Source of the DNA: a virus | Taxonomy: Duplodnaviria > Heunggongvirae > Uroviricota > Caudoviricetes | Length of the DNA stretch: 35,499 nt | Reading direction: 5' to 3' (one strand) | Virus record (IMG/VR): IMGVR_UViG_2541047894_000004 | Shown here: in pieces, positions 4,591 to 6,937 of the stretch | Position numbering within the stretch: the stretch's first letter is position 1 | Layout: each line of letters opens with the position of its first letter | Made by a program: the position numbers and the translations under genes | The notes under the pieces: generated by a model | Told to the model about the DNA's origin: nothing | The model's input: the letters and a program-made list of their open reading frames with translations, nothing else | Database searches by the model: none

Positions 4591-4780
4591 CTTTTTTCCC
4601 CTTAACGCCGGGGGGCGGAACGTTTTATCTACTGCGCTTTGTATCAATCAACAACTGCCGTCATGTTCGTATGCCTCAGGCTGGCTACTTAGCCCTGTTC
4701 AGTGGCTGGATAACTCGAGGTATTGTCCTGCCGTTCTCCGGTGGGGCGTTGTTTGGATATGCTTATTAAACACAATTGGT

Positions 4781-4805
4781 TTTTGTGTGTCAACACAAAA
4801 TGTGT
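4781..4805. promoter_or_regulatory. Operator-like overlapping palindromes TTTTGTGT-GTCA-ACACAAAA-TGTGT downstream of racR
   Basis: Perfect inverted repeats read directly from the sequence; same ACACA/TGTGT half-site as in the racR-ydaS intergenic region. Confidence 0.45.
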
Positions 4806-4837
4806 TTTTATAGTGGCGTGTCATATGATGATGGTAC

Positions 4838-4861
4838 AAAAAAAGCCCGCCGATAGCGGGC
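4838..4861 (-). terminator. Rho-independent terminator downstream of racR
   Basis: On the minus strand: GCCCGC-tatcg-GCGGGC stem-loop followed by a U7 tract, 32 nt after the racR stop. Confidence 0.75.
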
Positions 4862-4892
4862 TGATTGGCATATTACTGTGATAGCAAGATCA

Positions 4893-5312
4893 TTACTCCG
4901 GTGGGGGGGTATCTTTAAGCCTGCCCCTCAAATATTTTTCTACATACTCGTCGATTTCTTTTAGCCGGACTTCAAATAGCTCAATCATTCGTTGTTGTTC
5001 TGAGCCCGGTAGCTGGTTAAACAACTCAAGAAGTTTTCGTTGGGATTCATTTAACCACAATTCAGAAGAGTCTTTTTCCCCAAAGAGGAGCTCAGGAGGA
5101 GATATGCCCAGTGCCTTTCCCAGGACGACAGCATCATGCACTCCAACATTTCTGCTGCCCGCCTCATAGTTACCTATACGCGATTGCGTCCATCCGCAGA
5201 TTTCAGCAAGTTTTCCTTGAGATAAACCAAGCTTCTGCCTGCGCTCTTTAAGACGCATTGCAATTTTGTCATTGAGCCTACTAGCGGCAATTTTTTCGTT
5301 TTCTTTTTCCAT
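4893..5312 (-). CDS. racR: CI-like HTH (XRE family) prophage repressor, RacR-like, 139 aa
   Basis: HTH-like stretch LGLSQGKLAEICGWTQSRIGNYEAG; divergent from a cro-like gene; RBS AAGGA upstream. Confidence 0.82.
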   Translation of the reverse strand: MEKENEKIAASRLNDKIAMRLKERRQKLGLSQGKLAEICGWTQSRIGNYEAGSRNVGVHDAVVLGKALGISPPELLFGEKDSSELWLNESQRKLLELFNQLPGSEQQRMIELFEVRLKEIDEYVEKYLRGRLKDTPPPE

Positions 5313-5323
5313 TTCGTCCTTGT

Positions 5324-5390
5324 ATCACGAATCGTGATTTATATAAAACACAAAATAGCTTGACCGTAAAACACAAGATGTGTTTAAAAT
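5324..5390. promoter_or_regulatory. Divergent promoter/operator region between racR and ydaS
   Basis: Palindromes ATCACGA-A-TCGTGAT (5324-5338) and AAACACA-AGA-TGTGTTT (5369-5385) in the 96-bp gap between divergent HTH genes. Confidence 0.5.
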
Positions 5391-5408
5391 TGTCGTCGGA
5401 GGTTTTTA

Positions 5409-5651
5409 ATGAACAAAATTTCAACATATCGAAAACAACTTGGTCTGTCTCAAAGACAACTCGCTGTTCAGCTAGGGTGGATACAAAGCCGACTAGCAAA
5501 TTACGAAGCAAACTTTCGTACCCCTGGGCTAGAGGAGTGCAGAAAAATTGTTTCCACCCTTAATCGGCTTGGTGCTCATTGTGGACTTGACGATGTATTC
5601 CCCCCAGACGGTAAGCATAGCGAAAACAGCATAGGAGCGGTTGATTCATGA
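5409..5651 (+). CDS. ydaS: Cro-like HTH protein (YdaS-like), 80 aa
   Basis: GGAGG RBS; HTH-like LGLSQRQLAVQLGWIQSRLANYEA; divergent from the repressor. Confidence 0.78.
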   Translation: MNKISTYRKQLGLSQRQLAVQLGWIQSRLANYEANFRTPGLEECRKIVSTLNRLGAHCGLDDVFPPDGKHSENSIGAVDS

Positions 5652-6070
5652 AAATCAGGCATGAGCACATCGAATCAGTGTTGTTAGCCCTGGCAGCCGA
5701 AAAAGGGCAGGCGTGGGTTGCTAACGCAATTACTGAAGAATATCTGCGCCAGGGGGGCGGCGAATTGCCCCTGGTACCAGGCAAGGACTGGAACAATCAG
5801 CAGAATATCTATCACCGTTGGTTGAAAGGTGAAACGAAAGCGCAAAGGGAAAAAATTCAGAAACTGATCCCTGCGGTTCTGGCAATTCTTCCGCGCGAGC
5901 TGCGTCACCGACTCTGCATCTTCGATACCCTGGAACGCCGTGCATTACTGGCGGCGCAGGAAGCGTTGAGTACGGCAATTGATGCGCATGATGATGCAGT
6001 CCAGGCCGTTTACCGTAAAGCATATTTCAGCGGCGGTGGGTCGCCCGGCGATTCTGTCGTAGTGCATTGA
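5648..6070 (+). CDS. ydaT: YdaT-like (CII-like) protein, 140 aa
   Basis: Start overlaps the ydaS stop (ATGA); length matches recalled YdaT; position equivalent to lambda cII. Confidence 0.75.
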   Translation: MKIRHEHIESVLLALAAEKGQAWVANAITEEYLRQGGGELPLVPGKDWNNQQNIYHRWLKGETKAQREKIQKLIPAVLAILPRELRHRLCIFDTLERRALLAAQEALSTAIDAHDDAVQAVYRKAYFSGGGSPGDSVVVH

Positions 6071-6114
6071 TTGAAATTAATCGTGCCGGACTGTTTTGTT
6101 CGGTATCAGTTAAA

Positions 6115-6558
6115 TGTAACGCTTACAGCGTTACAAGGTGAAAACAATATGGCTTCAAACTGGATAAAGCTCGAGGTTATTACGCCGGATAAGCCGGAAA
6201 TATTCAGGCTTGCTGAGATTCTGAATATTGATCCAGATGCCGCATTAGGGAAAGTCATTCGCTTCTGGGCATGGGCGGATCAACAAATGATAGACGGTAA
6301 CGCAGAGTGTAACGCTCGCGGCGTTACAAAAAGTGCAATAGATCGCATCACTTTTATGGCTGGTTTTGCTGATGCGTTAATTCAGGTTGGATGGCTGGTC
6401 GAAAATAACGGTGGGCTTTCTCTACCTAACTTTGAACGTCATAACGGAAAAAGCTCTAAAAAACGGGCGATTACAAACGAGAGGGTTACAAAAATACGCG
6501 AACTGAAACGAAAAGGTAACGCTGCCAGCGTTACACAAACGGATCAAAAAGCGTTACC
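6115..6558. repeat. Ori-like array of GTAACGC/GCGTTAC palindromes and half-sites with phased A-tracts
   Basis: Palindromes TGTAACGCT-TAC-AGCGTTACA (6115-6135), TGTAACGC-TCGCG-GCGTTACA (6308-6328), GTAACGCTG-C-CAGCGTTAC (6516-6534); half-sites at 6470, 6484, 6551; A-tracts 6440-6515; GAGGAA x3 at 6560-6577. Confidence 0.5.
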
Positions 6559-6937
6559 AGAGGAAGAGGAAGAGGAAGATATAAATACTGATCTCCCCCT
6601 AAATCCCCCTCGCCAAAAACGAGCATCTAAAAAATTCGAGCCGGAGGCTATTGAGTTGCCCGATTGGTTGCCGGAAACACTCTGGCATGAGTGGGTCCGG
6701 TTCAGGCAGGCATTGCGAAAACCGATTCGAACGGAGCAGGGCGCTAACGGGGCGATACGGGAACTGGAAAAATTCCGCCAGCAGGGTTTTACCCCTGAGC
6801 AGGTGATTCGACATAGCATCGCCAATGAATACCAGGGCTTGTTCGCGCCGAAAGGTGTTCGGCCTGAGACGTTGCTCAGACAGGTTAACACTGTCTCGTT
6901 GCCGGACAGTGCGATCCCGCCAGGCTTCAGGGGGTAA
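6149..6937 (+). CDS. ydaU: Replication initiator O-like protein (YdaU-like); start taken at the ATG at 6149 (AAGGTG RBS)
   Basis: Sits just upstream of the DnaC-like gene; carries internal palindromic repeats and an acidic EEEEEED linker as in lambda O; the ORF-track start at 6071 is TTG. Confidence 0.75.
   Translation: MASNWIKLEVITPDKPEIFRLAEILNIDPDAALGKVIRFWAWADQQMIDGNAECNARGVTKSAIDRITFMAGFADALIQVGWLVENNGGLSLPNFERHNGKSSKKRAITNERVTKIRELKRKGNAASVTQTDQKALPEEEEEEDINTDLPLNPPRQKRASKKFEPEAIELPDWLPETLWHEWVRFRQALRKPIRTEQGANGAIRELEKFRQQGFTPEQVIRHSIANEYQGLFAPKGVRPETLLRQVNTVSLPDSAIPPGFRG

Follow-up and report, generated by a model that had tools for sequence, protein, structure and literature searches.

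Probable OL and OR operators of a lambda-like immunity switch around a DicA-family repressor gene in a Rac-type prophage of Escherichia coli

The DNA considered here is a stretch of 35,499 nucleotides (IMG/VR record IMGVR_UViG_2541047894_000004), called the window throughout, and the element in question is a set of short inverted repeats on both sides of its repressor gene. The window comes from E. coli and is a Rac-type prophage, identical (100%) to that of strain DLL7555 and 99.9% identical to that of APEC O1, and only 153 of 5,426 complete genomes have the region in this version at a coverage of 80% or more. The genes run recE, recT ... kilR, sieB, a ydaF-like gene, a ydaG-like gene, the repressor gene, a cro-like gene, ydaT, ydaU and ydaV. 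An original prediction, made from the letters alone, had pointed to three motifs around the repressor gene: TTTTGTGTGTCAACACAAAATGTGT (4781-4805), AAACACAAGATGTGTTT (5369-5385) and ATCACGAATCGTGAT, a perfect 15-bp palindrome (5324-5338). The sequence at these positions reads as was claimed. The features on which the argument turns, with operators and promoters named after their putative counterparts in phage lambda, are:

4765..4793, minus strand: PL-like leftward early promoter, read from the sequence, in an arrangement that recurs in relatives
4770..4782, no strand: OL1, ACACA-ATT-GGTTT, centre 4776, in the spacer and -10 of PL, with two mismatches to AACACRNNNYGTGTT
4793..4805, no strand: OL2, ACACA-AAA-TGTGT, centre 4799, overlapping the -35 of PL by 1 bp, an exact match
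4893..5312, minus strand: repressor gene, 139 amino acids, a helix-turn-helix (HTH) of the XRE/lambda-CI-like kind (Pfam HTH_3, E = 5.5e-13) and a short conserved C-terminal helical region
5319..5327, minus strand: probable PRM-like extended -10, TG-A-TACAAG (conserved as TGnTAnnnT), ending 6 nt before the repressor ATG
5324..5338, no strand: OR3, the palindrome ATCACGA-A-TCGTGAT, centre 5331, unique in the window, overlapping the PRM-like -10
5348..5360, no strand: OR2, ACACA-AAA-TAGCT, centre 5354, with three mismatches to the consensus
5360..5390, plus strand: PR-like promoter of the cro-like gene and ydaT, read from the sequence, equivalent in position to K-12 PydaS (PMC9638921)
5371..5383, no strand: OR1, ACACA-AGA-TGTGT, centre 5377, in the spacer and -10 of PR, an exact match
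5409..5651, plus strand: cro-like gene, 80 amino acids, HTH_3 (Pfam, E = 6.7e-10)

The repressor is a full-length homologue of DicA, the repressor of prophage Qin (30% identity over residues 14-131, E = 2e-15), and its HTH is homologous to that of lambda CI (31% identity, E = 2e-6), with no similarity beyond the N-terminal domain. The recognition helices begin QSRIG in the one and QSGVG in the other. With RacR of K-12 there is no similarity (BLASTP E = 3.3). Homologues of the repressor are 122 to 143 amino acids long, and the protein has the build of the DicA/GfoR type, an N-terminal XRE HTH with a short helical C-terminal region (about 125-145 amino acids in all). It does not have that of a cleavable S24 repressor: the Pfam matches of this 139-residue protein are to the HTH only. 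By homology, the repressor is of the DicA family and is not RacR. The Cro-like protein is related to the HTH of the repressor (45% identity, E = 2e-10) and to a solved 82-residue "lambda repressor-like protein" (E = 8e-15); BLASTP found no alignment of it with K-12 YdaS, nor is it similar to DicC. The names RacR and YdaS that had been given to the two proteins are therefore wrong by homology and right by position only, the proteins being positional analogues.

The two proteins have nearly identical recognition helices, GWTQSRIGNYE in the repressor and GWIQSRLANYE in the Cro-like protein. Because of this near identity they probably share operators, though with different preferences, and common sites are likelier than the separate operators for two regulators that had been proposed.

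The exact 13-mer ACACANNNTGTGT (ACACA-N3-TGTGT) occurs in the window at 4793-4805 and 5371-5383, that is, once on each flank of the repressor gene, and nowhere else, even if one mismatch is permitted. Two copies in 35.5 kb, against none in 100 dinucleotide-preserving shuffles, are not background. The palindrome is also unique in the window, and 7 of 100 shuffles contain any match to it with one mismatch or none. The AACACA hexamer is similarly concentrated, 6 of the 15 in the window falling inside two 38-bp stretches flanking the repressor gene (4769-4806 and 5347-5384). The bare core CAC-N5-GTG (CACNNNNNGTG), on the other hand, was rejected as a window-wide signal, since it is found at the background rate (7 observed, 6.7 expected); the extended motif alone is specific. 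Five sites of 13 to 17 bp, OR1, OR2, OR3, OL1 and OL2, have this core in common. Measured against the family consensus AACACR-N3-YGTGTT, OR1 and OL2 have no mismatches, OR3 and OL1 two each and OR2 three, and three further sites in the window also reach two mismatches. The two mismatches of OR3 are a symmetric pair, T for A at position 6 from the centre.

The 96 bp between the repressor and cro-like genes (5313-5408) contain three phased sites that overlap the PR-like and PRM-like elements. The centres of OR3, OR2 and OR1 lie 19, 42 and 65 bp upstream of the repressor ATG (5312), with a successive spacing of 23 bp, and the corresponding positions of the annotated OR3, OR2 and OR1 of lambda, relative to the cI ATG, are -19, -42 and -66. 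Divergent repressor and cro-like genes with multiple dyad operators centred near -19, -42 and -66 make a lambda-type arrangement. OR2, a half-site that had been overlooked, combines a good distal half with a degenerate half abutting the -35 of PR. The palindrome had been taken for an element unrelated to the ACACA sites. That view is not supported: it lies 23 bp from OR2, in the place of lambda OR3 (-19), has the CAC-N5-GTG core and matches the consensus except at position 6.

PR has the -35 TTGACC (5360-5365) and, as its -10, either TTTAAA (5383-5388, with a 17-bp spacer) or TAAAAT (5385-5390, with a 19-bp spacer). Facing it, the PRM-like element is best seen through the relatives, where the right half of OR3 always reads CGTG(A/G)TA and is followed by A/T-rich DNA, giving an extended -10 TGnTAnnnT that ends 6 nt before the ATG. 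Such a -10 makes a leaderless or near-leaderless repressor transcript probable. In lambda, cI is leaderless. The repressor genes paaR2 (PMC8630535) and racR (PMC9638921), also leaderless, supply further analogies to PRM. A TATATA/TATAAA stretch at 5340-5347 was considered as the -10 of the repressor and rejected, being polymorphic in close relatives and absent in Salmonella.

On the other side of the repressor gene, PL has the -35 TTGACA (4793-4788), a 17-bp spacer and the -10-like TTTAAT (4770-4765), and faces ydaG, ydaF, kilR and recET. TTGACA-N17-TTTAAT/A recurs downstream of the repressor in relatives. OL1 and OL2 are again 23 bp apart and their register on PL is that of OR1 and OR2 on PR, so that the repressor gene is bracketed by two outward-facing promoters of the form TTGAC(A/C)-N17-TTTAA(T/A), each with one operator in its spacer and -10 and another abutting its -35. 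Both promoters were assigned from this register, from homology with K-12 and from conservation, not from a promoter scan. Of the unit that had been proposed at 4781-4805, TTTTGTGT-GTCA-ACACAAAA, the portion ACACA-AAA-TGTGT (4793-4805) is conserved, while the left arm TGTGT (4784-4788) is polymorphic and missing from most close haplotypes, so the unit as a whole was rejected as functional. What is conserved downstream of the repressor is OL2 together with the half-degenerate OL1. No third OL site was found in 23-bp phase, and the stretch where it would lie is polymorphic. A second set of operators on a leftward promoter, beyond the terminator of the repressor and conserved in relatives, is a further lambda-type trait.

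Homologous repressors (43-86% identity) were collected from phages Chris1, vB_Apl-pPE4 and pAEv1818, from reference genomes, and from homologue-encoding and viral contigs, and all of the homologous immunity regions examined have the same layout. Among 107 distinct homologous intergenic regions, 105 have a site with a perfect core at -64 to -75 (OR1) and 102 a CAC-N5-GTG site at -19 to -22 (OR3). Equivalents of the half-degenerate OR2 and of OL2 were also found in relatives. The outer bases of the operators co-vary with the recognition helix of the repressor. Thus OR1 has AA|AA (AACAC) in 75 of 77 regions where the helix is xQSR[IV]G, TT|CT or TT|TT (TTCAC or CTCAC) where it is SGSSRIA, and GA|GA (GACAC) where it is [AS]TASRVG. 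In phage pAEv1818, the position of OL2 is occupied by ATCACTATTCGTGAT, which is nearly the palindrome of the window, where the window has ACACA-AAA-TGTGT. The two flavours of motif are therefore interchangeable members of one operator family. Salmonella prophages with repressors 85-86% identical to that of the window have the same operators; others in Salmonella are of a heteroimmune sister type with the same Cro and the conserved C-terminal domain. The Salmonella homologues might be thought to be GfoR or GfhR, but these names were not adopted, as the sources carry generic names only. Three Citrobacter loci (L004, L007 and L008) have a fourth CAC-N5-GTG, which covers the ribosome-binding site of cro at about -92 from the repressor ATG and is absent from the window.

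A finer view comes from 45 close haplotypes of 4591-5411, in whose alignment the arm positions were defined as CAC plus the outer base of eight good half-sites. None of the 32 arm positions varies, as against 43 of 114 other non-coding positions (one-sided Fisher p = 2.5e-6) and 8 of the 15 central spacer positions. The operator arms are under purifying selection. In OL2, the spacer and position ±2 vary, but nothing changes in the CAC/GTG arms or the outer bases; OR1 likewise pairs invariant arms with a polymorphic spacer. ACACA is invariant in OL1, and the right arm is in most haplotypes a better CGTTT. In OR2, 5345-5355 is invariant and the degenerate arm varies. The arms of OR3 are invariant in all relatives with this repressor, around a centre of AAT, ATT or, in Salmonella, ATG.

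Taken together, these observations make it quite probable that we have here the immunity switch of a lambdoid prophage of the Rac type, with a cassette other than that of K-12, and that the motifs are its OL and OR operators. The original prediction had seen in the two ACACA-N3-TGTGT sites something like OL and OR bracketing the repressor, and this part of it gains from the promoters in the same register, the same layout in K-12 Rac and in the homologous regions, and the conserved arms. The switch would work as follows. Dimers of the short DicA-family repressor would bind 17-bp CAC-N5-GTG operators with the consensus AACAC(A/G)-N3-(T/C)GTGTT. OR1 and the weak OR2 would lie over the PR-like promoter in front of the cro-like gene and ydaT, OR3 over the extended -10 of the probably leaderless PRM-like repressor promoter, and OL2 and OL1 over the PL-like promoter that would drive ydaG, ydaF, kilR and recET. 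Repressor on OR1, OR2 and OL would silence the early genes, and from OR2 (centre at -42) it could also activate PRM. Occupancy of OR3, whether by the Cro-like protein or by an excess of repressor, would stop the synthesis of repressor. The repressor might also bind cooperatively, and repressor bound at OL and OR might loop the DNA between them.

The proposed switch resembles lambda in its divergent repressor and cro genes, in three 17-bp CAC-N5-GTG operators at -19, -42 and -66 (here -65), in a second operator set on the leftward promoter beyond the repressor operon, and in a repressor whose HTH is homologous to the N-terminal domain of CI, the recognition helices of both starting with QS. Even the flavours of half-site have their parallels: TATCAC in lambda corresponds to the palindrome, TAACAC and CAACAC to the ACACA sites. 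Unlike lambda CI, however, the repressor of the window has 139 amino acids and lacks any S24 peptidase domain or domain for RecA cleavage. Only two OL sites can be recognised, and about 580 bp separate them from OR, where lambda has 2.4 kb. The Cro analogue has an XRE-type HTH, a paralogue of the one in the repressor, and does not share the lambda Cro fold, and a YdaT protein takes the place of CII.

With Qin the resemblance is in the repressor, a full-length homologue of DicA, both proteins being short and non-cleavable. DicA represses the divergent dicCp and also the downstream, PL-like dicBp, which drives DUF1391 and kil-type early genes (PMC10448788). The sites of DicA, however, look to us like TTAG-N6-CTAA, different in sequence and spacing, DicC is unrelated to the Cro-like protein, and the prophage backbone differs. 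K-12 Rac and CP-933P offer the reverse case, the same slot in a Rac-type prophage, from ydaG to ydaT, with other proteins in it. The architecture of promoters and operators in K-12 Rac is the same, and the RacR operators found by footprinting are inverted repeats 3 nt apart (PMC9638921). PydaS has TAGGC-N3-GCCTA sites directly beside its -35 and overlapping its -10, and sites are arranged in the same way around a TTGACA-N17-TATAGT promoter downstream of racR. The repressor and the Cro-like protein of the window nevertheless have no sequence similarity to RacR or YdaS, and the RacR-type operator (T/A)TAGGC-N3-GCCTA(T/A) has no match in 4749-5641 even at two mismatches. In CP-933P, PaaR2 and YdaS compete, with footprints that overlap at PRM, PR and a PL (PMC8630535), though the operators there are GTTTAGTAA repeats. 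Lemire et al. counted DicA and RacR among the gfoR/gtgR homologues, a group of short repressors (about 150 amino acids) that cannot be cleaved (PMC3121763). GfoR and GfhR of Gifsy-1 and Gifsy-3 are inactivated by LexA-controlled antirepressors; neither an antirepressor gene nor a convincing LexA box was found in the window. An antirepressor gene may lie outside it.

Several points weigh against reading the region as such a switch. The distance from OL to OR ranges among relatives from 510 to 589 bp, with no common helical phase. GfoR, grouped by Lemire et al. with DicA and RacR, behaves as a dimer in gel filtration (PMC3121763), while PaaR2 is an octamer (PMC8630535), and because GfoR runs as a dimer, higher-order cooperativity or looping is not assured. 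OR2 and OL1 have one good half-site each. The PRM-like hexamer in the window (TACAAG) is weak, and an AAGGA resembling a Shine-Dalgarno sequence stands before the repressor ATG, so a leadered transcript is also possible. The proposed -10s of PR (TTTAAA) and PL (TTTAAT) lack the usual A at position 2, and a promoter scan whose rule demands that A called neither promoter. Finally, a search of the literature for these operator strings brought up no relevant paper in the searchable library.

If the sites are not operators of this kind, what might they be? Perhaps the ACACA/TGTGT motifs are accidents of composition (CA/TG runs in AT-rich intergenic DNA) or scars of recombination, without regulatory role. 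The extra TGTGT at 4784-4788, which is not conserved, and the bare core, which is no more frequent than expected, speak for this, but accident is hard to reconcile with an exact 13-mer present twice where none is expected, with sites placed precisely on promoters at a 23-bp phasing, with invariant arms around variable spacers, or with the co-variation of operators and recognition helix in 107 intergenic regions. We consider this explanation scarcely credible, and in effect it has already been refuted. The palindrome by itself could serve YdaT (a CII-like protein) or some host regulator as a target, or form an RNA hairpin in the leader of the repressor, rather than being an operator for repressor or Cro. 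It does stand directly upstream of the repressor start codon, and YdaT of K-12 footprints in the racR-ydaS intergenic region, with no clear motif (PMC11879457). Yet the palindrome is unlike the YdaT box TTGATT-N6-AATCAA, and a repeat that does resemble the box lies apart from it, at 5641-5658. As for RNA, its arms pair around a 1-nt centre, and the limit is a stem of 5 bp with a loop of 5 nt; moreover, if PRM is leaderless, the palindrome is not in the PRM transcript at all. None of these roles fits a site whose place at -19, 23-bp phasing and core have been retained alongside the other operators in 102 of 107 relatives, YdaT being nearly constant. This account of the palindrome seems to us very improbable, if somewhat less so than accident.

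A better case can be made that the palindrome is a dedicated Cro operator, preferred by or exclusive to the Cro-like protein and not bound by the repressor, which would restore, in effect, the separate sites of the original prediction. OR3 differs from OR1 and OL2 by the symmetric change from A to T at position 6, which falls on the unconstrained n of the TGnTA of the extended -10, and the base that sets OR3 apart tracks the Cro allele across relatives. Cro of the Ala type (..LANYE) goes with T at position 6 of OR3 in 47 of 47 cases, and Cro of the Ser type (..[LI]SNYE) with C in the promoter-proximal half of OR3 in 52 of 56. Furthermore, lineages of E. coli and of Salmonella alike pair the same Cro allele with a heteroimmune repressor. 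In that sister type every operator is of the TCAC type, in the window OR3 alone. Lambda Cro is said to use the equivalent base, at operator position 3, to prefer OR3. Against this, the association of Cro with base comes from only 3 to 5 independent lineages, its counts lack phylogenetic independence, and it has exceptions (L018/19, L229/230 and L243). The recognition helices of repressor and Cro differ at two or three residues only, and the palindrome is two symmetric mismatches away from the repressor consensus. In CP-933P and lambda, both proteins bind all operators (PMC8630535). On balance, a dedicated Cro operator is possible but unlikely, and the related claim, that the OR3 palindrome is adapted to the Cro-like protein and not to the repressor, we would put forward still a little more tentatively. 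Rules that would link position 5 of the helix with position 6 of the operator (Ser to C, Gly to A) are suggestive but have several exceptions, and they are not claimed here.

The distribution of Cro alleles is of note in its own right. The Cro-like protein of the window is 100% identical to that of L005 (Actinobacillus phage vB_Apl-pPE4, PP818812.1), whose cro gene is itself identical to that of the window, while the repressors are 64% identical (the E. coli type). In Salmonella the same holds for L012 and L022, with Cro 100% and repressors 60% identical. Identical Cro thus occurs with two immunity sets (L005, L024 and L048 for the E. coli type; L012 versus L022), and the junction of exchange lies between OR1/PR and the start codon of cro, placing cro outside the immunity-specific module. 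The PL leader of L005 is, in addition, nearly identical to that of E. coli Rac-type prophages. Such a cro gene and leader are odd in a phage assigned to a Pasteurellaceae host.

Returning to the probable immunity switch, its setting within the prophage can be delimited, with the help of three further features:

4749..5641, no strand: immunity cassette, comprising OL/PL, terminator, repressor gene, OR and cro-like gene, delimited by blastn against K-12 Rac
4844..4862, minus strand: intrinsic terminator of the repressor transcript, before PL, with the stem AGCCCGC-TAT-CGGCGGGCT and then a T-run
5641..5658, no strand: inverted repeat resembling the YdaT box, TTGATT-CATGAA-AATCAG, across the start codon of ydaT, read from the sequence

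In the comparison with K-12 Rac, 92.7% identity ends at 4748 and 93.4% identity begins again at 5642, so the 893 bp between (4749-5641), which have no DNA similarity to K-12 Rac and are flanked on both sides by Rac-homologous DNA, constitute a swapped immunity cassette. By its sequence and place, it stands in for the cassette of K-12 Rac, the classical picture of heteroimmune cassettes. A repressor/cro pair between ydaG and ydaT is found in the annotations of both APEC O1 and K-12, with flanks about 93% identical, and the YdaT proteins are 94% identical. The repeat resembling the YdaT box has counterparts in K-12 (ATGATTCATGAAAATCAA) and in CP-933P (TTGATT-N6-AATCAA) (PMC11879457, PMC9986795), and since homology with K-12 Rac restarts exactly there, the repeat marks the right edge of the cassette. 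A hairpin equivalent to the terminator is present in relatives. Farther right, the 5' part of the ydaU-like gene (6069-6575) has no DNA similarity to K-12 Rac between flanks 91-93% identical to it, and so appears as a second mosaic patch, adjoining the replication genes.

The leader between PL and ydaG (4591-4760, minus strand, about 170 nt) is nearly invariant in the 45 haplotypes and common to heteroimmune relatives. It has no match in Rfam and its folding energy is unremarkable (z = -0.13); Rfam and folding gave nothing for the motif region either. One idea is that the leader could be a nut-like or other antitermination site.

The first 25 residues of the repressor (5241-5312) resemble an internal tandem duplication (NEKIAASRL / NDKIAMRL). 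Most relatives, with a single copy of the repeat, are shorter by about 12 residues, and yet OR3 stands at an unchanged distance from their ATG. The C-terminal 50 amino acids or so (4893-5050 in the window; loci L004-L023), LLELFNQLP.SEQ..MI.LFE.RLKEIDEYVEKYLRGR, are kept across immunity types, and in L011 this segment is joined to an unrelated N-terminal domain. The segment is a candidate for a dimerisation module or for the target of an antirepressor. The GW..QSR..NYE helix is found, in addition, on the long repressors of L243 and L247 (218 and 237 amino acids, against about 125-140), which suggests a DNA-binding module shuffled between short and long types of repressor.

The biology described here is ordinary in the sense that a textbook lambdoid switch would surprise no specialist, and the kind of element is thoroughly known. 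The specific operator code, however, appears undescribed in the literature searched. For a DicA-family immunity type that is common in prophages of E. coli, Salmonella and other Enterobacterales, the code would be AACAC(A/G)-N3-(T/C)GTGTT with an OR3 of the TCAC type, and with it the sequence alone should suffice to predict to which immunity group a Rac- or Gifsy-like prophage belongs. The analysis shows, too, that the locus should not automatically be equated with RacR/YdaS of K-12. The one mildly interesting lead is the Cro allele common to two immunity types, together with the base of OR3 that tracks it. If OR3 is indeed tuned to Cro, then nothing but the repressor, OR1, OR2 and OL would determine the specificity of immunity, and Cro could act in trans across immunity groups. 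A heteroimmune relative, superinfecting or induced, could then switch off the repressor promoter of the resident prophage through OR3, which would be a counterpart, at the level of Cro, to the cross-talk between Gifsy prophages by way of antirepressors.

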